From: Pseudomonadales bacterium
Lineage (GTDB): Bacteria; Pseudomonadota; Gammaproteobacteria; Pseudomonadales; UBA7434
Direction of reading: 5' to 3'
Length of the DNA: 64,000 bases
Assembly (NCBI GenBank): GCA_965263235.1
Contig: OZ253667.1
Location: forward strand, 642,189-706,188
Shown here piece by piece: positions 38,578 through 47,980 of the stretch. Within the stretch, counting starts at the first letter, position 1. Each line of letters starts with the position of its first letter. The position numbers and the translations under genes are program-made. The notes beneath the pieces were generated by a model. The model was not told the DNA's origin. It was given only the letters and a program-made list of their open reading frames with translations, and did not search any database.

Positions 38578-38898
38578 ATGGTTGATCTTGCGGCATTGTC
38601 AGAGCTGGAGGAAAACGCGAAGGCAGCGTCTGACTTGATGAAAGAGCTTTCTAACGAGTATCGCTTGATGATTCTTTGCTCGTTGGCTGGCGGCGAGTTG
38701 TCGGTGGGGCAGATCAACGATTTGATGCCGCTCAGCCAGTCTGCGGTGTCTCAGCATCTTGCAAGGTTGCGAGCATCCCAACTGGTCGCAACCAGACGAG
38801 AGTCGCAGTCGATTTTTTATCGCCTTAACGGCGACGCAGCTATTCGGGTGATCGAAGTCTTGCAGTCTATTTACTGCCCAGATCTAAAGACCGGTTGA
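38578..38898 (+). CDS. ArsR/SmtB-family regulator, BigR/SqrR-like (persulfide-sensing type)
   Basis: 106 aa with the wHTH LSVGQINDLMPLSQSAVSQHLARLR. Two Cys residues (C34 in ILCSL, C100 in IYCPD) sit where BigR/SqrR carry their redox pair. It is the first gene of a sulfur-stress operon. Confidence 0.8.
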   Translation: MVDLAALSELEENAKAASDLMKELSNEYRLMILCSLAGGELSVGQINDLMPLSQSAVSQHLARLRASQLVATRRESQSIFYRLNGDAAIRVIEVLQSIYCPDLKTG

Positions 38899-38957
38899 TT
38901 TCCAAGGCGGCTCCCAGCTGAGCTGCTCATACAAGCACAAGCCTACAGGAGGAAATA

Positions 38958-39476
38958 ATGAGCGTATCCATTAGTGCTGAAAACTTCAAAGAGCTTTATA
39001 GCCAGGGAGGTATACAGGTGCTCGACGTCAGGACTCGTGTAGAGACGAGTACACAGTCAATTTCCGGTGCTCTCCACGTGCCGCTAGATGAGCTTAACTC
39101 TTCCGAGGCTCTGGAGCAGTTGGCAAAGATTCAAGGAGAGCTCTATCTGTTATGCAAAAGCGGTAAGCGTGCGGGTATGGCGAGGAATCAATTGTCGGAG
39201 AAGATTGGCGCCAAACTGACTGTCATTGATGGCGGCATTGATGCCCTGGCTAACTGCGGGTTAAAGACGCGCTCGAGTAACTCTGTCTGGAGCCTTGAGC
39301 GGCAAGTTAGATTTACCGCGGGGATGATAGTTGTCATCGGCTGTTTAGTGGCACTTTTTGCCGCGCCAGGTGCGGTGTGGATACCACTTTTGGTCGGCTG
39401 TGGTTTGATGCTAGCCGCGGCAACAGATAGTTGCGCCATGGGCTTGTTGTTAGCACGAATGCCCTGGAACCGTTAA
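38958..39476 (+). CDS. rhodanese domain protein with C-terminal DUF2892 membrane domain (YgaP-like)
   Basis: 172 aa with the rhodanese active-site loop CKSGKRAG. The C-terminus has two TM helices ending ...CAMGLLLARMPWN. Confidence 0.8.
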   Translation: MSVSISAENFKELYSQGGIQVLDVRTRVETSTQSISGALHVPLDELNSSEALEQLAKIQGELYLLCKSGKRAGMARNQLSEKIGAKLTVIDGGIDALANCGLKTRSSNSVWSLERQVRFTAGMIVVIGCLVALFAAPGAVWIPLLVGCGLMLAAATDSCAMGLLLARMPWNR

Positions 39477-39492
39477 ATAGTAAGCTAACGAA

Positions 39493-40335
39493 ATGCTTAT
39501 ATTCGCGGTTGGTATCTGTATTGGGCTGGTATTGGGGCTTACGGGCGCTGGAGGATCGGCGCTGGCAGTGCCGCTTCTGGTTATTCTTGCTGGGCTCCCG
39601 GTTCAGGACGCAGTAGGTATAGCGCTATTGGCAGTTGCGGTAAGTGCGGCTTTGGGTGCGATCCAGTCGCTAAGGGTCGGTGCCGTATTAAGAAATCCCG
39701 CTATTGTGCTTGCTATTTCGGGCGCACTTTTTGCGCCGATAGGTAATGCCGTCGGGTCGAATATTAGTCCTGAGTTGTTAGCTACGCTGTTTGCCGCCCT
39801 CGCTCTGGTGATTGCGATTCGGTTGTTTGTGCAGGCGCTAAAATCGGCGGATGAAGACATCGTTGTTCGAGCGGGTATAAGTGATCGCTATAACGCTGTC
39901 GAACCGATTTGCCGGATGAACTCAAGTGGCTCTGGTTTTGAATGGAGGCCCCGCTGCGTTGGATCGTTAGCGGCAGGCGGTACCGCGGTGGGCTTTCTGG
40001 CTGGGTTGTTTGGTGTTGGTGGGGGTTTTCTTATTGTTCCTTTGTTGTTGTATCTCACTAACACTTCGATGCATCAAATCGTCGGCACCTCTCTTGTTGT
40101 TATCACGCTGACAAGTGCGACAGCTTTTTTGGCTTATCTTTTGCGGACGTCTATTGAAGAGCGCGATGCGTTGATTCTTGCTTCGGTGGGCGCTCTCGTC
40201 GGTATGAGCGTAAGTATAACCGTCGCGGGGAAAGTCCCCGGAATTCTGCTTCAAAAACTATTCGCGCTCACGCTCGTAGCTTTCGCCCTGTTGCTGCTAG
40301 CAAAATCAGCGACAGCTGTGTTGGGCAATCTCTAA
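39493..40335 (+). CDS. TauE/SafE family sulfite/anion exporter
   Basis: 280 aa, polytopic, with an internally duplicated 4-TM pattern (GLTGAGGSALAVPLL ... GLFGVGGGFLIVPLL). Confidence 0.85.
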   Translation: MLIFAVGICIGLVLGLTGAGGSALAVPLLVILAGLPVQDAVGIALLAVAVSAALGAIQSLRVGAVLRNPAIVLAISGALFAPIGNAVGSNISPELLATLFAALALVIAIRLFVQALKSADEDIVVRAGISDRYNAVEPICRMNSSGSGFEWRPRCVGSLAAGGTAVGFLAGLFGVGGGFLIVPLLLYLTNTSMHQIVGTSLVVITLTSATAFLAYLLRTSIEERDALILASVGALVGMSVSITVAGKVPGILLQKLFALTLVAFALLLLAKSATAVLGNL

Positions 40336-40355
40336 ATTAACTGGTGGACAAGGCA

Positions 40356-41054
40356 ATGATTTTTAGGCAACTGTATGATCTAGAATCCTCCACATATACT
40401 TATCTTTGTGGAGATGAGCAAACCAAAAAGGCGATTCTTATCGACCCGGTGATCGCCCAGACAGAAGTTTATCTGCAATTGTTAGAGCAACTTGGTCTTA
40501 GTCTGGATAAAGCGTTGGACACGCATACCCATGCGGATCATGTGACGGCGCTTGGGGAGTTGCGAGCAAGAACGGGTTGCACAACGATGATGGGAGAACA
40601 GTCAGAGGCTGATTGCGTCTCACTTAAGTTTTCTCATGATGATGAAATTTCAGCGGGAAATATAAGATTAAAGGCAATCTACACACCAGGGCACACGGAT
40701 GATTCCTATAGCTTTTTTACACAAGCCGAAGGGCAGGGTTATCTTTTTACAGGAGATACCTTGCTAATTCGTGGTACCGGCAGAACCGATTTTCAAAACG
40801 GAAGCGCTGCAGACCAGTACGACAGTATTTTCTCCAGGCTTTTGCAATACCCAGACGATACCCTGGTTTATCCAGGGCATGATTATAAAGGATGGACAGT
40901 TTCCACGATAGGTGAGGAGAGAGCACATAATCCGAGAATCAATGTGGAAGGATTGGCCGAGTATATAAGGTTAATGGATTCGCTAAATTTGCCCGATCCA
41001 AAATTGATGGATATCGCAGTTCCAGCCAATAAGGCCTGCGGTGCTAACGGTTAA
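40356..41054 (+). CDS. MBL-fold persulfide dioxygenase-like hydrolase (ETHE1/Blh type)
   Basis: It has the N-terminus MIFRQLYDLESSTYTYL, the metal motif THTHADH and GHTDDS. The ORF is open from a GTG at 40344, but the ATG at 40356 matches the usual N-terminus. Confidence 0.8.
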   Translation: MIFRQLYDLESSTYTYLCGDEQTKKAILIDPVIAQTEVYLQLLEQLGLSLDKALDTHTHADHVTALGELRARTGCTTMMGEQSEADCVSLKFSHDDEISAGNIRLKAIYTPGHTDDSYSFFTQAEGQGYLFTGDTLLIRGTGRTDFQNGSAADQYDSIFSRLLQYPDDTLVYPGHDYKGWTVSTIGEERAHNPRINVEGLAEYIRLMDSLNLPDPKLMDIAVPANKACGANG

Positions 41055-41089
41055 CATCAGGGCTTTTCTAGCTACCGAGGTATTTACAA

Positions 41090-41503
41090 GTGAAACCTGA
41101 AGGGCATTTTGTTGATTTAATTTTCCGCGTTTCCCTTAGCCTTATTTTTGTAATTGGGGGGCTGGGACATTTCGTTAGGCAGGAGTGGATGTTGCAGCGA
41201 TTAACGGATTCGCCGTGGTCAGATTGGGTGGAGGCGATTGGGAGTCCAGCCTTTTACCTCGAATTGTCCGGTGCGGTCATGATGGTCGCCGGGCTGTCTT
41301 TGCTATCAGGGTTTTATACCAAGCTAAGTGCGTTAGCACTTTTTGTCACGTTGGTGCCGATAACCTTTGTGATACATATTGCTCCCGATCACACCGGGCC
41401 ACTTTTTAAAAACGTGGCGATTTTGGGGGCGCTTCTGCACTTTGTTGTTTATGGTGCTTCCAACTACAGCGTTGATAGTGTTATCGCGAGTAAAAAGATA
41501 TAG
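41090..41503 (+). CDS. DoxX family membrane protein
   Basis: 137 aa with 4 TM helices, including LIFVIGGLGHF and the pattern LLHFVVYG. Confidence 0.7.
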   Translation: MKPEGHFVDLIFRVSLSLIFVIGGLGHFVRQEWMLQRLTDSPWSDWVEAIGSPAFYLELSGAVMMVAGLSLLSGFYTKLSALALFVTLVPITFVIHIAPDHTGPLFKNVAILGALLHFVVYGASNYSVDSVIASKKI

Positions 41504-41789: not shown

Positions 41790-41958
41790 GGGAGTGTAGA
41801 AACAACCTCCTGTGTTTCACCCTTCGGGCGCCTTACGCGCGCGCTAAATCGCTCCAGGCATTTGGTGAACCCGCTTCTTGTATTCACCTGTCGCAAACCT
41901 CGGCCAATAAAAAACCCCAACCGGAAAACGGTTGAGGTTTGTTTATTGGTGGACGGCG
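41790..41958. repeat. left copy of a ~170-nt direct repeat (structured spacer, hairpin terminator and 12-nt ssrA 3'-end fragment)
   Basis: It aligns by eye with 47466-47637, with about 5 substitutions and 4 small indels. It ends tggtggacggcg, the complement of the tmRNA 3' terminus, then diverges. Confidence 0.85.
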
Positions 41959-42209
41959 ACAGTCTGATTTGAGTGGTAACTAATTGATAATAAAGGCTAT
42001 TCAATATCTGTCTTGTCATTGATACCCCCAAAAGTACCCCCAGCGGAAAGCATTTTAAGCTTGGTTAGAGCGATAATTAGGCAATTTTGCGAAGTTATTA
42101 AAAAACGCAATTTTTGAGAGGGTGAACAGCGTACTTGCAGAAATTGCTGTTTTTTCGCAAGTACAGTGCTAAGCTTGCGAGAAATAGCCAGTTTTCGAAA
42201 GTACATGCT

Positions 42210-43301
42210 ATGTATGACCCCACAAAACCTTATTACGATCTGCCGAAGCTGCCGCCAGCGCAATCGCTGGAATCACTGGAGCTGTACAAGTCTTTGCTGC
42301 CTGCATCGGAGGCATTGGCAAAGCTTTCAGCTACGGCAGAGCACCTACCTAACCAGGCTGCGCTATACCAGAGTGTGATTCTGCTTGAAGCAAAAGCTTC
42401 GTCAGAGATTGAGCAGGTCATTACGACAGATGAAAAACTGTTTAGCAGTGACCCAGCCCAGCACGCTACGGACCCTATGACTAAAGAAGTACTGAGTTAT
42501 GGAGAGGCCATTCACTGTGGAATGCAAAGTGATAGGCCCATTTGTACGCCGCTTATCGAAGAGATTTGTACAATTATCAAAGGCATGGAGATGCAGGTTA
42601 GAAAGGTGCCAGGCACATCGCTCAAGCGTCCCTCAACTGGTGAAATCGTATATACACCACCCGATGGCGAGAAACTGTTGAGAGATTTACTTGATAATTT
42701 GTTTGGTTGGATGAACGACAATGATGGCGTTCATCCCATCATTAAGGCCGCTATCGCACATTACCAGTTTGAGTCGATACATCCCTTTACCGATGGAAAT
42801 GGCCGGAGTGGTCGAATTATGGTGGTGCTTTATTTGGTGGAGCAAAAATTGCTGACTTCTCCAGTCTTGTTTTTATCGGGTGAAATTCTTGCTGATAAAA
42901 AAAGCTACTATTCGCTGCTTCAGTCTACTAGAGAGGATAACGATTTTATCCCTTATCTAATTTGGTTTGCGAATGTTGTACATCGAGCGTCGTTACAATC
43001 AACGATCCGAGCCTATAACGTGCGGCTTGCGATGCAGGAAGTTAAGCATGAACTAAGAGCTCTAGATTCAAAAATGTACTCACAAGATTTAGTTAATACA
43101 ATGTTTAGAGGGCCTATTATATTTGCCAACCAACTGGTCGAGCGTGACATAGTTGGGAGCATATCGACGGCACATACTTATTTAAGAAAGCTTGAGTCAG
43201 CTGGATTGTTAGTGAAATCGGACAGGAAATACCATCGCAAAACAGGGTACATCAATACTCGGTTGTTGAACGCATTAAGCGGGGAAATTGATCTGGGTTA
43301 A
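42210..43301 (+). CDS. Fic family protein (AMPylase-type active site, Fic_N-type N-terminus)
   Basis: It has the active-site motif HPFTDGNGRSGR and the N-terminus MYDPTKPYYDLPKLPP typical of Fic_N proteins. An inhibitory-helix-like ASSEIEQV is present. The ORF is open from a TTG at 42135, but the ATG at 42210 fits the family N-terminus. Confidence 0.88.
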   Translation: MYDPTKPYYDLPKLPPAQSLESLELYKSLLPASEALAKLSATAEHLPNQAALYQSVILLEAKASSEIEQVITTDEKLFSSDPAQHATDPMTKEVLSYGEAIHCGMQSDRPICTPLIEEICTIIKGMEMQVRKVPGTSLKRPSTGEIVYTPPDGEKLLRDLLDNLFGWMNDNDGVHPIIKAAIAHYQFESIHPFTDGNGRSGRIMVVLYLVEQKLLTSPVLFLSGEILADKKSYYSLLQSTREDNDFIPYLIWFANVVHRASLQSTIRAYNVRLAMQEVKHELRALDSKMYSQDLVNTMFRGPIIFANQLVERDIVGSISTAHTYLRKLESAGLLVKSDRKYHRKTGYINTRLLNALSGEIDLG

Positions 43302-43315
43302 AGGGGGTAATAACT

Positions 43316-43546
43316 ATGGTAAGCAAACTAAAATCTAAAACCAACAATCCTGTCGCTAAGCAGGCCAGGCGGTTTAATAAATCAGTGGTTTTTAAAGACC
43401 GTAAACAATCCCATAAACGGGGTTATATTAAACACAAAGGGCGTCAATACGAGCGCCCTTGTTTTTTGGTGGGACGGCGGGAGTTGATATTGATTTATAG
43501 GAACCTGATAAGAAGATATACCCCTAAAACCTATTTTCTAGCCTAA
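43316..43546 (+). CDS. small basic protein, candidate alternative ribosome-rescue factor ArfA-like (likely made from a non-stop transcript)
   Basis: A strong SD (aagggggtaataactATG) lies 14 nt after the fic stop. The basic sequence NNPVAKQARRFNKSVVFKDRKQSHKRGYIKHKGR loosely parallels the ArfA core (..[22 protein letters not shown]). An intrinsic terminator lies inside the ORF at codons ~41-51. The 3' tail overlaps the convergent nuclease gene. Confidence 0.5.
   Translation: MVSKLKSKTNNPVAKQARRFNKSVVFKDRKQSHKRGYIKHKGRQYERPCFLVGRRELILIYRNLIRRYTPKTYFLA
43437..43467 (+). terminator. intrinsic terminator located inside the ArfA-like ORF
   Basis: A 7-bp stem aagggcg / cgccctt with a 10-nt loop is followed by gTTTTTT. 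Confidence 0.65.
43467..43487. repeat. partial copy of the ssrA 3' end (att-like core)
   Basis: tggtgggacggcgggagttga compares with tggtggagacggcgggagttga at the true ssrA 3' end (47624-47645). The match extends into the preceding T-run. Confidence 0.75.
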
Positions 43547-44536
43547 ATCGGCGACATAAATCTGCTTGAGAGGGAGTATCGATCTGTATTTCGGGAGCAT
43601 GCTTGGGTAGTGCTCAAGAATCAAATCAACCAGTTCTTCGCCGTCAATCAATCGCAGTTTAGGTTTGTTGCGTTCCAGCAATCTGGCTGGTCGTGAGTAG
43701 GAGCCTAGATTTACGAATAAGCCATACTCTCCTTCGCCCAGTGAGCCTAACAATTGGTTTACTTCGGGCTCACCATTTGATGTGAGCGATTTTTTGCACT
43801 GCACTTTGATGATGGGCGGCTCGAATCCGAGTTCATCACTGTGGGCGATGACATCGACACCGCCATCACCGCTTTTGGACGATACTCTGGCTTTGTAGCC
43901 CATACATTCCAACAGGTGCGCGACGAAGTATTCAAACTCGTAACCATCGAGTTTGGCGTGCAGTTGCTTAATAATAAAATCCTCTGTTGTTTGCTGAGCT
44001 TGAAAAGAAATGGTTTCAGTGATGCTCTCATCGTCGGCAGTTTCATCATCACTAACATCTCTAGTTGTGCTGTTTGCGAGCCCAATTTTGGTTAAAAACT
44101 CTTGCGAGTGAGTTTTTACCGCAAAGAGCGTTAATGCAGAGCCAATTTCGTTTAAAGCTGACTGGCTAAATTCATTGCGTTCAAAGTGGCCAAGCCATTC
44201 TACCTGTCTGTGATTGGTATAGTCGTGTGGGTCGTCTGCAACGTAAATGTAATCACTAGTTACTCTCCCGATATTAACCACACGATCCTTGGACGGATAT
44301 ATAACAATATCCCCCTGTTTTATCTCGTTAACAAATCTAAATAACACGCCAGCGTTTTGCGGGATCGCACCTTTTTTTGATTCGGGCAGTGCTTTACTGA
44401 GAGCTTCTTTTAAGCTTTCTCTAGACACTGAGTATTGTTTTAAATCGCCAAGCTGTTCCCAACCTATACCAACATAATTGTTGTCTATGGGAGCCGATCC
44501 AGCTTTTTCTCCCATATGTATTCCCCAGACGTTCAT
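43538..44536 (-). CDS. Mrr-catalytic-domain restriction endonuclease with unassigned N-terminal domain
   Basis: 332 aa. The C-terminal Mrr_cat pattern is FEYFVAHLLECMGYKARVSSKSGDGGVDVIAH...IIKVQCKK. The N-terminal ~150 aa (WGIHMGEKAG...VGIGWEQLGDL...IKQGDIVIY) is not the Mrr winged-helix N-domain. A strong SD (aaggaagg) lies 13 nt after the upstream gene's stop. Confidence 0.85.
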   Translation of the reverse strand: MNVWGIHMGEKAGSAPIDNNYVGIGWEQLGDLKQYSVSRESLKEALSKALPESKKGAIPQNAGVLFRFVNEIKQGDIVIYPSKDRVVNIGRVTSDYIYVADDPHDYTNHRQVEWLGHFERNEFSQSALNEIGSALTLFAVKTHSQEFLTKIGLANSTTRDVSDDETADDESITETISFQAQQTTEDFIIKQLHAKLDGYEFEYFVAHLLECMGYKARVSSKSGDGGVDVIAHSDELGFEPPIIKVQCKKSLTSNGEPEVNQLLGSLGEGEYGLFVNLGSYSRPARLLERNKPKLRLIDGEELVDLILEHYPSMLPKYRSILPLKQIYVADLG

Positions 44537-44549
44537 TTTTTCCTTCCTT

Positions 44550-47312
44550 TTAACTGGTTGATGAAGTTTTCTTTCTTGCTTTTCGCTTTGGCTTTTCTTG
44601 TTTAGGCAAAAGGCTCGTGTATTGCTGATAGAGATTAAATAAAAAAGCTACGCGCTCAGCTTCTGATTTAAAACTGCGTTTTCCGTAGGCGGCGTCTACC
44701 GCTTTGTCGAGTGCTTGATGTGCTTTAAATAGAGCAGGAGGCATAGTTAGCGGGTCGTATAGGTCAGCCAAAGTCGAATCAGGGAATTGGTCGCGAGCAT
44801 CTAAAACTGCTTGGGCTTTTTCTTCAATTGCGGCTTTCTGTTTTACAGTTGGGGCTGGCGGCCAGGGGAAATTATTGTAAACAATATCTTTGGAATATCT
44901 GTAACGACTCTCTAGTCTTCCACATACGGCTCTTACCCATGAATTGTGCATCGTTGAAAGGAGTAAGCCCAAATGGTATGCGCTTGCGCTTGGGACGATT
45001 TTTACTAAATTGCTACAAAACGTTTCAGGTTGCTCGAAACCGATGGGGATAAATTGCCTTCTTTCGGATGAAACTTCGGGAACTATTAGATATGTATCAG
45101 AAGGTATGTTTTCTACATGAAATCTTGTGGGTGTGGCCGCCAATTTCTGTGTTGGATGGCTCTTGCTTGCTAACCTAACCGCTTTGACGGCTTCTACACG
45201 CTTTAAAGCCTCTGGCATTTTTTTTAGTTCATTTGGCGGGCATTCGCCCAACCACAAACACCAACGCTCATAACCATTAATAAACTCGTGAGCACCCAGC
45301 CAGCGTTTAAACCATCTTTCGGACAGAGGTTCTGTTTTTATAAACGCTTCTTTTTCCTCGGTGGTGAACAAGTAATTGCCACCATCAATTGGTTTATTGC
45401 CAATGCCTATCTCGGGGACGTTGCAAATAGGTTTTGCCCGTCTCGTTAAGACTACGTTAGCAGCGTCTACTAGATAGGGGTTGATGTTTTTTATTTCAAG
45501 TTCTAGTGGATCGCCTTTAATGTCTTCATATTCAAAAAGCCTTTTTTTGGTGGGGTATCGTTTGCTAAATCCCACAATAACACAATGGACGGCAGCGTTG
45601 TTTGCGGCTTCATTACTCCAGCAAAAGGTTCTATGAGCAAAGTCTATGGCAATTTCTTTTGCTAATAGATACCCCCACAGCACACCAACTTGCTCCCCTA
45701 AGCATATTGAGTTAGTAGAAACGAATGCACACGCAACGTTTTTATTCTCAGCTAGATATTCAGATGCTTTAATATACCAAGCTGCCACTAAATCAAGTAA
45801 GCCAGAGTTTTTTATACCTTTCAATACTAATGCCGTATCTTTTCTCTGTTCAGAATCAAGATACTTTGCGCCCACAAATGGTGGATTGCCAAAAATAAAG
45901 TTTGTTCTAGGTTTGGGTAACACATCTTCCCAGTCCATAGTCAGCGCATTGCCGCATTCAACTCTAGCCGACGATTTCAGTGGTATCCGCGCAAAATACA
46001 AACCAAACTCTTCAGAAACTAACAGATTCATTTGGTGATCCATCAACCACAATGCAACCTGTGCAATTTGAGCAGGAAATTCTTCAATCTCTATGCCATA
46101 AAACTGGTCAACGTCCAACTGCAACATAGAATGAATATCAAAAGTCTGCTGACCACTTTCACTCGATGCTCTTAAAATCTCTAGCTCAAGTGTTCGTAAT
46201 TCTCTGTAAGCAATTACCAGGAAGTTTCCGCAGCCACAAGCTGGGTCAAAAAAAGTAAGTGTTCGGAGCTTTTTATGAAATTCAAAAAGCTTGTTCTTGT
46301 TATTCTTGACTTTTTCGAACTCAGCTCGTAGATCATCCATGAAAAGCGGATTTATTAGCTTGAGGATGTTTTTTTCGCTGGTGTAGTGTGCTCCAAGGTT
46401 TCGCCGTTTCTTCTTATCCATGATTGATTGAAATAGCGAGCCGAATATTGCGGGCGATATAAGGCTCCAATCCAGCGCGCAGCAATCGAGCAATGCCTGG
46501 CGCATGGCTGTGTCGAAAGCTGCAATCGGCAAAGACTCTTCGAAGAGTTTGCCATTGATATATTCAAAGGCTGCGAGTTGTTCATCACGATTACTAAGGC
46601 GCTTTTCGTGTGGTGTATTCAGAACCTGGAAAATGGTGCTCAAGTGCATGGCTAAATCTGAACCATCTTCGGCTGTTCGGTCGATAATGTAGCTTTCGAA
46701 CTGTTGCTGCTCAAAGATCCCTGTGTCTTCTGCGAACATACAAAACAGCAGTCGCACAAGATAGACTTCTAAAACATGCCCTTCGTATCCAGACTCCTTC
46801 ATTTGGTCGTGCAGCTTACCCATAGCTTCCGCTGCCTCAATGTTGACGGGATCTTGTTCTTTGATTTTGTGAGTTTGGTAACCCGCTATAAAGCCGAATA
46901 GATTTATATTGTTGTGTAGTTCTTCCAGCGAAAACTCGGTCTGTGTGTCTTCGTCCAGATCGTAGAGGCGAAACTTCGCAAAGTCGGAAACAATCACATA
47001 GCGCGGTAAATCACGCTCCTTGAGTCCCTCGAAGTAGGAAAGGGCTTGTTCGCGGGCACTGTCTAAGTCTTTTCCTCGCGATTTATGTTCTATCAGTAAC
47101 TTACCCTTCCAAAGCAAGTCGATATAGCCATCTTTGCCATCAATCTTTTTAACGTGGGTTTCAAATGTTGCGATTCGGCGGCGAGTGACGCCGAAGATAT
47201 TGAAAAAACCGTCCCAAAAGCTTTTGGCTTCGGCATGTTCTGACGATTCCTCCGCCCAATCCTTTGAGAATTGAAATGCGCGTGATCTGATCTCGTTCCA
47301 GCTCAGAGGCAT
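44550..47312 (-). CDS. MmeI-family type IIL (IIG) restriction-modification enzyme (fused nuclease, m6A methyltransferase and TRD)
   Basis: 920 aa, collinear with my recollection of MmeI (about 919 aa). The N-terminus is LSWNEIRSRAFQFSKDW and the PD-ExK motif is IDLLWKGKLLIEHKSRGKDL. SAM motif I is FFDPACGCGNFLV and motif IV is GNPPFVG. It also has the conserved C-terminal GRLESRYRYS and LYDPLTMPPAL. Confidence 0.9.
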   Translation of the reverse strand: MPLSWNEIRSRAFQFSKDWAEESSEHAEAKSFWDGFFNIFGVTRRRIATFETHVKKIDGKDGYIDLLWKGKLLIEHKSRGKDLDSAREQALSYFEGLKERDLPRYVIVSDFAKFRLYDLDEDTQTEFSLEELHNNINLFGFIAGYQTHKIKEQDPVNIEAAEAMGKLHDQMKESGYEGHVLEVYLVRLLFCMFAEDTGIFEQQQFESYIIDRTAEDGSDLAMHLSTIFQVLNTPHEKRLSNRDEQLAAFEYINGKLFEESLPIAAFDTAMRQALLDCCALDWSLISPAIFGSLFQSIMDKKKRRNLGAHYTSEKNILKLINPLFMDDLRAEFEKVKNNKNKLFEFHKKLRTLTFFDPACGCGNFLVIAYRELRTLELEILRASSESGQQTFDIHSMLQLDVDQFYGIEIEEFPAQIAQVALWLMDHQMNLLVSEEFGLYFARIPLKSSARVECGNALTMDWEDVLPKPRTNFIFGNPPFVGAKYLDSEQRKDTALVLKGIKNSGLLDLVAAWYIKASEYLAENKNVACAFVSTNSICLGEQVGVLWGYLLAKEIAIDFAHRTFCWSNEAANNAAVHCVIVGFSKRYPTKKRLFEYEDIKGDPLELEIKNINPYLVDAANVVLTRRAKPICNVPEIGIGNKPIDGGNYLFTTEEKEAFIKTEPLSERWFKRWLGAHEFINGYERWCLWLGECPPNELKKMPEALKRVEAVKAVRLASKSHPTQKLAATPTRFHVENIPSDTYLIVPEVSSERRQFIPIGFEQPETFCSNLVKIVPSASAYHLGLLLSTMHNSWVRAVCGRLESRYRYSKDIVYNNFPWPPAPTVKQKAAIEEKAQAVLDARDQFPDSTLADLYDPLTMPPALFKAHQALDKAVDAAYGKRSFKSEAERVAFLFNLYQQYTSLLPKQEKPKRKARKKTSSTS

Positions 47313-47460
47313 AGGCTTTTGCGTGTCCTTAAATATAAAATTGTTTGAATTTTGACTCCAGTTTGCATTGTATTATTAAGCCCCGAAAGACCCTAGTACA
47401 TATTTTTAGGGAAGGTGTTTAGGGTCGAGGTAAAACTTGTCACACAAGACAAACAAAGGA

Positions 47461-47471
47461 ACGGCGGGAGT
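47461..47471. repeat. 11-nt partial copy of the ssrA 3' core
   Basis: acggcgggagt is identical to 47632-47642 inside ssrA. It lies exactly at the left edge of the right ~170-nt repeat. Confidence 0.5.
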
Positions 47472-47637
47472 GTATGAAACACCTCCTGTGTTTCACCCTT
47501 CGGGCGCCTTACGGGCGCGCTAAATCGCTCCAGGCGATTTGGTGAGCCCGCTTCTTGTGTTCATCTGTCGCAAACCTCGGCCAATAAAAAACCCCAACCG
47601 GAAAACGGTTGAGGTTTGTTTTTTGGTGGAGACGGCG
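47466..47637. repeat. right copy of the ~170-nt direct repeat (runs into the authentic ssrA 3' end)
   Basis: See 41790-41958. It contains the ssrA terminator ccccaaccg-gaaaa-cggttgagg (47592-47614). Confidence 0.85.
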
Positions 47638-47980
47638 GGAGTTGAACCCGCGTCCGTCAGTCCTCTGCCATCGGCTCTACATGCTTAGATCCGCCTATTA
47701 ATTTTATCTCTCTCGGCCCAGCGGTCGGGGTGATGAGAGACGAGCCCGGTAAAAGGTTTCGCGCATTGGCCCCGAACGTGTCGCTGCGCTAGCTTGTTCT
47801 GTATGACAGTCACTTCTTGTTTACAAGCATCCAATGGTGACTGCTAGCAGGGTTTAAGCCGCTAGAGCGTAGTTTTCGTCGTTGGCAACTATAAAGTTAC
47901 AGCGATTGTTTTACGAGAGTCACTACCCTCTCGGCATGCACCTTTGGTTTCGTAACCGGCGTCGAATCCAGATCGTCCCC
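47624..47980 (-). ncRNA. ssrA: tmRNA (transfer-messenger RNA)
   Basis: On the minus strand the 5' end reads GGGGACGATCTGGATTCGACGCCGG and the 3' end reads GGACGCGGGTTCAACTCCCGCCGTCTCCACCA. The internal tag reading frame encodes ANDENYALAA followed by a stop. Confidence 0.96.
47854..47886 (-). other. tmRNA tag-peptide reading frame (ANDENYALAA plus stop)
   Basis: The minus-strand sequence is GCC AAC GAC GAA AAC TAC GCT CTA GCG GCT TAA. Confidence 0.9.

Follow-up and report, generated by a model that had tools for sequence, protein, structure and literature searches.

A two-gene islet at a tmRNA gene combines an MmeI-family restriction-modification enzyme with a DUF8426-Mrr nuclease predicted to read modified bases

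INTRODUCTION

MmeI, a single-chain type IIL restriction-modification (RM) enzyme, is self-sufficient by established knowledge (PMC4833311). What, then, is a second nuclease gene doing 13 nt downstream of an MmeI-like gene? The question is raised by a 64,000-nt stretch of DNA from a Pseudomonadales bacterium (GenBank assembly GCA_965263235.1, contig OZ253667.1, positions 642,189 to 706,188 of the forward strand; referred to here as the window), where the gene for a 920-aa MmeI-family protein is followed by that for a 332-aa protein with an Mrr_cat nuclease domain at its C terminus. With moderate confidence, we favor the view that the pair is a compact ∼4-kb horizontally acquired islet in which a type IIL RM enzyme is stacked with a type IV-like modification-dependent nuclease, the two being co-transcribed and mechanistically independent. 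Here, we describe the two proteins, the genomic partners of the nuclease family, and the boundaries of the islet, and weigh other roles of the nuclease as the relevant evidence appears.

RESULTS

An MmeI-like gene and a nuclease gene in one operon

Both genes lie on the minus strand, with the RM gene first (Table 1). The spacer reads TAA-AAGGAAGGAAAAA-ATG and places the Shine-Dalgarno sequence AGGAAGGA five bases ahead of the ATG of the 332-aa gene. A terminator scan identified no terminator-like site between the two genes, which are probably co-transcribed because a 13-nt spacer is too short to accommodate one. The N-terminal sequence of the 332-aa protein, MNVWGIHMG, is kept in its homologues (W4 and G5 are nearly invariant and M8 is invariant), and the first ATG is therefore taken as the true start of this gene. 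Upstream of the MmeI gene, the minus strand yielded no sigma-70-like site in a simple promoter scan, a result that is uninformative. A two-gene operon with these limits (43538 to 47312), gap, and Shine-Dalgarno sequence had been proposed in the original prediction, made by a model from the DNA letters, and all of these elements were recovered.

Table 1. Coordinates of the features discussed in the text (positions in the window)
Feature	Position	Strand	Evidence
MmeI-family type IIL RM enzyme, 920 aa	44550..47312	-	Five MmeI Pfam domains; PADLOC REase_MTase_IIG, 1234 bits; PDB 5HR4, 1221 bits
Complete 332-aa nuclease gene, PADLOC candidate family PDC-S02	43538..44536	-	PDLC04819, E=5e-136
13-nt intergenic spacer with Shine-Dalgarno sequence AGGAAGGA	44537..44549	-	Sequence
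DUF8426 (PF28530) domain, residues 1-155 of the 332-aa protein	44072..44536	-	Precomputed Pfam; AF2; Foldseek
Mrr_cat PD-(D/E)xK domain, residues 195-306, with GDGGVDVIAH and VQCKK	43619..43954	-	Pfam Mrr_cat, E=5.8e-25
tmRNA (ssrA), tag ANDENYALAA; 3' end is the islet attachment site	47624..47980	-	ARAGORN
Proximal repeat block: tmRNA 3' core (47620-47645), 158 nt of native downstream sequence, second core (47461-47471)	47458..47645	.	Repeats D1, D2, D6, D8
tmRNA 3' core copy (att-like), distal edge of the MmeI+nuclease islet	43462..43487	.	Repeat D8, 26 nt, 85% identity
Neighboring islet: SoFic (42135-43301) and DUF7230 small ORF (43316-43546)	41964..43461	+	Pfam Fic_N, Fic, SoFic-like_C, DUF7230; PADLOC SoFic, E=9e-89
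Distal 164-nt block copy and degenerate tmRNA core, outer boundary of the 5.7-kb insert	41790..41963	.	Repeats D1, D2; sequence

All five MmeI Pfam models (MmeI_N, MmeI_hel, MmeI_Mtase, MmeI_TRD, and MmeI_C) matched the 920-aa protein well over their cut-offs (E=3e-45 to 3e-93), and its residues 1-911 aligned end to end with MmeI of Methylophilus methylotrophus (PDB 5HR4). The layout is thus that of a PD-ExK nuclease, a spacer, a gamma-class N6-adenine methyltransferase, a target recognition domain (TRD), and a C-terminal domain, consistently with the match to the PADLOC type IIG model REase_MTase_IIG. In the alignment, IDLLWKGKLLIEHK corresponds to D70-x9-E80-x-K82 of MmeI (nuclease motif D-x9-E-x-K), and the S-adenosylmethionine (SAM) motif I FFDPACGCGNF and motif IV GNPPFVG are identical in both proteins. 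Collinearity with MmeI-type enzymes and the integrity of the PD-ExK, SAM I, and NPPF motifs, all anticipated in the original prediction, therefore stand. Its domains and motifs mark the product of gene 1 as a genuine member of the MmeI family of type IIL enzymes. The same protein also matched the PADLOC model 'mad2' (E=2e-56).

We mapped the published base-contact residues of MmeI (PMC4833311, PMC2731914) onto this alignment to predict the recognition site. The residues for position 3 (E746/N768) are those of MmeI (E751/N773) and specify C, as does the E/R pair of MmeI that is retained for position 6. At position 4, an R is combined with L769 in place of A774, and the A774L variant of MmeI recognizes G only (PMC4833311, PMC2731914). 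For position 2, I637 replaces Y642 of MmeI and is paired with K640, an I+K combination reported with A or C in the same two studies. The residues at position 1 (S718, H732, and V733) are unlike those of MmeI. The MmeI TRD code thus predicts that the site is probably N(A/C)CGAC; TCCRAC is improbable because the residues at positions 1, 2, and 4 differ. The window enzyme therefore shares with MmeI its five domains, collinearity over 911 residues, catalytic motifs, and the TRD residues for positions 3 and 6, but it departs from MmeI at the other three positions and in the extra nuclease gene that follows it.

The 332-aa protein joins an Mrr-type nuclease to a predicted modified-base reader

The C-terminal half of the 332-aa protein scored 88 bits against the Pfam Mrr_cat model (cut-off, 21 bits), and residues E202, D224, D228, K244, Q246, and K248 of this region were invariant in 50 out of 50 homologues with 58 to 82% identity, which bears out the Mrr catalytic domain that had been predicted there. 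The region also matched weakly a restriction endonuclease entry of the PDB (4F0P). To our knowledge, Mrr_cat is a DNA endonuclease domain in every characterized member. The hidden Markov model (HMM) PDLC04819 of the PADLOC candidate family PDC-S02 covered residues 2-330 of the 332, and relatives of the nuclease were found in marine Gammaproteobacteria.

The nature of the N-terminal domain was less evident. Our local Pfam copy, which lacks the PF28530 model, gave no match to residues 1-190, and it detected neither the Mrr_N winged helix (PF14338) nor the EVE domain in the protein. In newer Pfam, PF28530 (DUF8426) is assigned in the precomputed annotation of an identical protein (P0001) and in 120 out of 120 homologues listed, so that the domain can no longer be called unassigned, as it first was. 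The accompanying guess that the first ∼150 residues form a PUA/EVE-like reader rather than an Mrr winged helix fared better. An AlphaFold2 (AF2) model built from 50 homologues was confident over residues 1-155 (predicted local distance difference test [pLDDT], 85 to 94), followed by a disordered acidic linker at residues 159-179. All 22 best Foldseek matches of this domain in the PDB were EVE proteins or YTH readers of N6-methyladenine (m6A). EVE structures, headed by PH1033 (1WMM and 2HD9; E∼1e-4), MJECL36 (2P5D), Rpa0253 (2GBS), and VcaM4I (6YEX), ranked above those of YTH proteins (E∼3e-3), with Foldseek probabilities of ∼1.0. DUF8426 is thus predicted, at the level of the fold, to be an EVE/YTH-like reader of the PUA superfamily, with modified-base recognition as its probable role. 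VcaM4I is an EVE-HNH enzyme grouped with the TspA15I enzymes, which prefer 5-methylcytosine and 5-hydroxymethylcytosine (PMC6765204).

The company that DUF8426 keeps in other proteins points in the same direction. A search with the isolated domain retrieved 3094 cluster representatives carrying it. Six of 10 long proteins examined fuse it to McrB-type AAA_5, sometimes with a duplicated DUF8426 or with tandem Mrr_N, an MGMT-type DNA-binding domain (DNA_binding_1), or canonical EVE; TIR+DUF4268 and DUF4145 are further fusion partners. Because swappable N-terminal readers on McrB proteins and nucleases are a hallmark of type IV restriction, these architectures support the assignment of an EVE-like reader. 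EVE-PD(D/E)XK fusions have been predicted to act as type IV enzymes, and a link between EVE proteins and type I RM has been noted (Bell et al. 2020, PMC7641849). As a separate observation, the McrB-like AAA_5 proteins P0246, P0215, P0134, and P0143 carry whole reader arrays, including Mrr_N with DUF8426 and EVE, DUF8426 with Mrr_N and an MGMT-like DNA-binding domain, and two copies of DUF8426.

Two alternatives arise from these fold matches. In the first, which we regard as rather unlikely, the nuclease would read m6A through a YTH-like pocket and act as a backstop for adenine-methylating RM systems, attacking foreign or dense adenine methylation (e.g., that of hypermethylating phages) while tolerating sparse hemimethylated host marks. 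The presence of YTH m6A readers among the matches is compatible with it, as is ScoA3V, a PUA-superfamily nuclease stimulated by 6mA (PMC6765204), but the higher rank of the EVE structures is not, and generic m6A reading behind RM systems whose motifs change constantly would risk self-restriction. In the second, which strikes us as very unlikely, the reader would bind modified RNA, and the gene would either encode an effector of the abortive-infection or toxin-like kind or serve to maintain the island (addiction). The DNA endonuclease activity of the characterized Mrr_cat members, the co-occurrence of DUF8426 with DNA-binding readers (Mrr_N and MGMT-type DNA_binding_1) in McrB-like proteins, and a genomic context of DNA restriction systems all argue for DNA as the substrate. 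RNA would be more in keeping with the classical RNA binding of EVE and YTH domains (PMC6765204), with the predicted RNA targeting of McrBC relatives, the CoCoNuTs (PMC11090510), and with the lack of phage protection by one PDC-S02 representative (see Discussion).

The nuclease gene accompanies diverse adenine-methylating RM systems

We surveyed the surroundings of the nuclease family in 18 loci from species-representative genomes, 80 loci from metagenomes, and the contigs of the two closest homologues, and classified neighbors by tblastn probes and Pfam; partner counts refer to the ∼60 non-redundant loci in which 1.5 kb or more of upstream sequence was available. In about two-thirds of these, an RM system with an adenine methyltransferase is directly adjacent on the same strand, often at 0 to 30 nt. 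Type I systems precede the nuclease in 14 non-redundant loci, and in four of these (L010, L011, L023, and L035) the nuclease gene overlaps or abuts hsdR; in 4 loci, they lie downstream of the nuclease. The partner is of type ISP or ISP-like in 8 loci and an Eco57I-like type IIG enzyme in 2; one locus has a type III system, and one has BREX, with the nuclease gene after BrxL. In 10 further non-redundant loci, the nuclease is preceded on the same strand by an MmeI-like type IIL/IIG gene; eight of these genes end 1 to 30 nt from the nuclease (L028, 4 nt; L038, 18 nt; L042, 14 nt; L045, 2 nt; L050, 30 nt; L064, 7 nt; L065, 1 nt; L069, 1 nt), and the remaining two lie ∼3 kb upstream (L019 and L046). 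The 82%-identical homologue has, 78 nt upstream on its contig, a gene for a protein of 1078 aa that matched MmeI_Mtase, Eco57I, and TaqI_C. The MmeI-like partners span several lineages, with 46%, 45 to 48%, 32%, and 26 to 27% identity to the window enzyme. On plasmids, the RM-linked pattern reaches into Firmicutes and Enterobacterales: pCY186 has the nuclease gene inside a type I operon, and pHFK418-NDM has it behind genes for a methyltransferase, a helicase, and a nuclease of the GIY-YIG type.

The association is not exclusive. In a neighbor-joining tree of the nucleases, members with partners of at least five RM classes intermingle. Within the clade of the window protein (at least 73% identity), partners are MmeI (window and L019), ISP (L002, L003, and L005), type I (L001), or none (L004 and L006); nucleases with 73 to 79% identity follow type ISP or type I systems, and more distant members follow type III or BREX. 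About one-third of the ∼60 loci have no detectable RM neighbor; therefore, the nuclease gene can stand alone. Conversely, 316 PLSDB plasmid records contain an MmeI-family gene versus 8 with a DUF8426-Mrr nuclease, and at least ∼97% of plasmid MmeI homologues lack the nuclease. In pPME5 of P. mendocina (L103, 5001-8577), which encodes the closest plasmid homologue of the window MmeI enzyme (64% identity), an abortive infection (Abi) family gene lies 10 nt downstream. The slot 3' of MmeI genes therefore holds varied defense cargo, depending on the element. Co-occurrence of the MmeI and nuclease families beyond chance, on which the original prediction hinged, is thus supported by the 10 further loci and the contig of the 82%-identical homologue, whereas specificity for this partner is contradicted by the ISP, type I, type III, and BREX loci. 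The family of the 332-aa protein is already cataloged as PDC-S02, a candidate nominated through embedding in RM, BREX, or DISARM operons. Two intermediate readings were dropped. An initial conclusion of no co-occurrence, drawn from tblastn when MmeI was absent from the first 18 loci, was abandoned after the Pfam neighbor scans and the metagenome loci. Protein P0140 was considered as an HsdR-DUF8426 'Rosetta-stone' fusion but not used, as it looks like a read-through produced by gene calling and padded with low-complexity sequence.

These neighborhoods bear on the m6A-reading alternative introduced above. The identified partner methyltransferases (∼40 loci) are all of the adenine type (N6 or the N6/N4 class), and no C5-cytosine RM system was seen among them, as would suit a nuclease that monitors adenine methylation. 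The bias may, however, reflect operon type, given that type I, ISP, IIG, and BREX are adenine systems by nature. Mrr of Escherichia coli K-12 restricts m6A-containing DNA and yet adjoins EcoKI, which would be a precedent for an m6A reader limited by context or density.

The same data address whether the nuclease is functionally coupled to its RM partner, which we hold to be quite unlikely. It could be an effector recruited or licensed by MmeI or a PrrC-like guard, in which the RM enzyme would keep the nuclease inactive until a phage anti-restriction protein that disables the RM enzyme releases it. The tight spacing here and in the eight other MmeI-like pairs, the overlapping stop and start codons of the nuclease and hsdR genes in L010, L011, and L023, and an RM association far above that of other PUA nucleases would all accord with coupling. 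So would the ISP-like partners in L033, L034, and L098 that showed no nuclease or helicase match (L033 by tblastn only), where the nuclease might supply the cutting. Against this stand the pairing of near-identical nucleases with structurally unrelated RM architectures, the solo third of the loci, the self-sufficiency of MmeI (PMC4833311), the scarcity of the nuclease next to plasmid MmeI genes, the Abi-family gene in the equivalent slot of pPME5, and the fact that no fusion of the MmeI and nuclease families was seen. A dedicated MmeI-nuclease functional complex, which the original prediction had entertained, is likewise unlikely because the nuclease pairs with many kinds of partner, also occurs in solo loci, and is missing next to most MmeI homologues.

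Several recurrent arrangements surfaced in the survey. A four-gene set located beside an integrase gene in L019 (2203-15001) and pHFK418-NDM (L102, 1-8002) encodes a large methyltransferase, a DEAD/ResIII helicase, a small protein (228 aa or the GIY-YIG nuclease), and the DUF8426-Mrr nuclease. Its methyltransferase is of the MmeI family in L019 and annotated just as 'DNA methyltransferase' in pHFK418-NDM, and the set may represent a distinct multi-gene system. ISP-like proteins of ∼1040 aa are encoded 5 to 7 nt upstream of the nuclease, by an integrase gene, in L034 (3847-6993), L098 (3885-6995), and L033 (3728-6941). Those of L034 and L098 matched methyltransferase and Type_ISP_C TRD models and no Mrr_cat_2 nuclease or helicase model (L033 was assigned by tblastn only), and DUF8426-Mrr might be the sole nuclease of these modules. 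A conserved pair of proteins (∼388 and ∼259 aa) travels with the nuclease in L002 (11027-14967), L006 (11033-12926), and the P0002 contig; neither had a Pfam match, and their genes adjoin AlpA, HTH_17, and integrase genes. They belong to one family of integrative elements, as part of either its backbone or its additional cargo. Finally, genes for DUF4011/AAA_11/AAA_12/MTES_1575 helicase-nucleases (1831 to 1989 aa) flank type I RM systems and the nuclease in two unrelated loci, L011 (829-6798) and L018 (11147-16642).

Copies of the tmRNA 3' end bracket the pair

The tmRNA gene (ssrA) lies immediately upstream of the MmeI gene, with a terminator hairpin next to it at 47617-47589 (terminator scan). 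An 11-mer from the tmRNA 3' end, ACGGCGGGAGT, occurs exactly at 47632, 47461, and 43474 in the window (0 expected by chance), the last copy (43474-43484) being inside the distal core right after the stop codon of the nuclease gene. In addition, a 164-nt block comprising the 3' tip of the tmRNA gene and the terminator region (47466-47630) recurs 5.7 kb away at 41790-41953 with 93 to 96% identity and is followed by a degenerate core, which brings the core copies in the window to three exact and one degenerate. These attachment (att)-like cores bracket exactly two genes, MmeI and the nuclease, in an islet of ∼4 kb. The G+C content over the islet is 42 to 43%, versus 47 to 50% in most of the flanking window. 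No integrase gene is present in the islets within the window. Because the pair is bounded by tmRNA 3' core copies, both genes were probably acquired as one unit, a circumstance that would also suit functional coupling of the nuclease to MmeI.

The repeats extend beyond the pair, and the region reads as tandem cargo islets at ssrA, with the MmeI+nuclease islet followed by a SoFic/DUF7230 islet, an array that looks to have been left by tmRNA-targeting elements. The second islet is separate defense cargo outside the MmeI+nuclease operon. Its DUF7230 open reading frame (ORF), on the plus strand, crosses a hairpin resembling a terminator (43437-43460) as well as the att-core copy, and overlaps the stop codon of the nuclease gene by 9 nt; the ∼30 C-terminal codons of this ORF probably arose at the islet junction. 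Just beyond the islets (38578-41503) is an apparent sulfur-related cluster which, judged from translation motifs rather than scans, encodes an ArsR-type regulator and rhodanese-domain, TauE/SafE-like membrane, metallo-beta-lactamase-fold, and DoxX-like proteins.

DISCUSSION

On the reading that we favor, the two enzymes would act side by side on different invaders. As expected from its family, the MmeI-type enzyme would methylate adenine on one strand of a 6-bp asymmetric site and cut unmodified invading DNA ∼20 nt away (20/18). The DUF8426 reader would bind a modified base in foreign DNA, and the disordered linker would tether the Mrr-type domain, which would cut; this type IV-like, modification-dependent mode is suggested by the reader-plus-nuclease architecture. 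The likeliest targets would be modified cytosines or hypermodified bases, by which phages escape classical RM systems. Such targets are favored because EVE ranks above YTH among the fold matches and because the partners all write adenine marks, so that a reader of anything other than m6A would automatically be self-compatible; they would also suit a host that marks its own DNA sparsely, with m6A. The pair would thus cover both unmodified invaders, through MmeI, and modified ones, through the nuclease. More generally, the nuclease gene would be a portable module that RM operons with adenine methyltransferases (type I, ISP, IIL/IIG, III, and BREX) have repeatedly taken up at their 3' end. This behavior fits the 'guilt-by-embedding' in type I RM, BREX, or DISARM operons by which the PDC candidates were nominated (Payne et al., bioRxiv 10.1101/2024.01.29.577857). 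The 332-aa gene shares with PDC-S02 the full-length HMM match and the RM/BREX embedding. It differs in its MmeI-type partner, inasmuch as the available parts of the main text and supplement of that work make no mention of MmeI or type IIG partners; nor was a definition of PDC-S02 found in the available supplementary tables.

Several observations weigh against this reading. The base specificity that we assign to the nuclease is one that we purely infer. The EVE/YTH link is modest (template modeling score of ∼0.5 on the target; root mean square deviation of 5 to 7 Å) and confined to the fold level, because neither a profile search of the N-terminal domain against PDB sequences nor hhalign against one EVE domain detected a relationship. 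The Mrr_cat half of the AF2 model is of moderate confidence only (pLDDT, 50 to 83). One PDC-S02 representative gave no protection against T4, T5, and T7 in E. coli B; this is the only experimental datum that we found for the family, and the subfamily and expression of that representative are not established. Lastly, PUA-domain nucleases lie within 3 kb of a DNA methyltransferase in fewer than 6% of cases (Lutz et al., PMC6765204), which makes the RM association of about two-thirds of the DUF8426-Mrr loci atypical for an independent type IV enzyme. On account of this disparity, a closer functional tie to RM systems stays a minority hypothesis. In its broadest form, which we deem unlikely, DUF8426-Mrr nucleases would be dedicated accessories of adenine-methylating RM systems, with the EVE/YTH-like domain reading adenine-methylation status. 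If this were true, the nuclease would destroy invaders that evade the partner RM system through hypermethylation or anti-restriction, might itself cut where the upstream ISP-like protein showed no nuclease match, and would have its proximity to RM genes explained, whereas other PUA-domain nucleases avoid methyltransferases.

Comparison with known systems places the islet within a familiar theme. The immigration control region of E. coli K-12, hsdRMS-mrr-mcrBC, has an Mrr_cat nuclease beside an adenine-methylating RM system and likewise combines modification-dependent with modification-blocked restriction. E. coli Mrr, however, has the Mrr_N winged helix and its own transcription unit, whereas the window nuclease has DUF8426 and shares an operon with a single-chain type IIL enzyme. 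The VcaM4I/TspA15I group and the EVE-PD(D/E)XK fusions resemble the predicted architecture of the 332-aa protein in joining an N-terminal PUA-superfamily reader to a C-terminal nuclease, and VcaM4I is a direct fold match. The nuclease of the VcaM4I/TspA15I group is HNH, whereas that of the window protein is an Mrr-type PD-(D/E)xK domain behind a reader with no sequence-level EVE signal; the two also differ sharply in their proximity to methyltransferases. PrrC, of the type Ic system EcoprrI, is likewise an effector encoded inside an RM operon. It is an anticodon nuclease, tied to one RM type and regulated by it. PrrC is almost exclusively embedded in type I RM systems (cited by Payne et al., bioRxiv 10.1101/2024.01.29.577857), in contrast to the DUF8426-Mrr nuclease, which occurs with at least five RM classes and in solo loci.

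Both components thus belong to cataloged families (MmeI on the one hand, and PDC-S02 with DUF8426 and Mrr_cat on the other), and the stacking of RM and type IV enzymes is a known theme. What this locus adds is the assignment of DUF8426 as a predicted EVE/YTH-like reader at the fold level, the finding that its nuclease family, which often exchanges partners, is also associated with MmeI-type, ISP, type III, and BREX systems, and the delineation of a minimal two-gene islet at ssrA. The islet offers a ∼3.8-kb, two-gene model for the coexistence of a modification-blocked and a predicted modification-dependent enzyme in one transcript. The survey also shows that PDC-S02, a cataloged defense candidate with a putative anti-phage function, accompanies five or more classes of RM system with adenine methyltransferases, unlike the PUA-domain restriction enzymes reported so far. 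The specificity of the reader, if determined, could provide a new modification-dependent restriction enzyme for epigenetic mapping.

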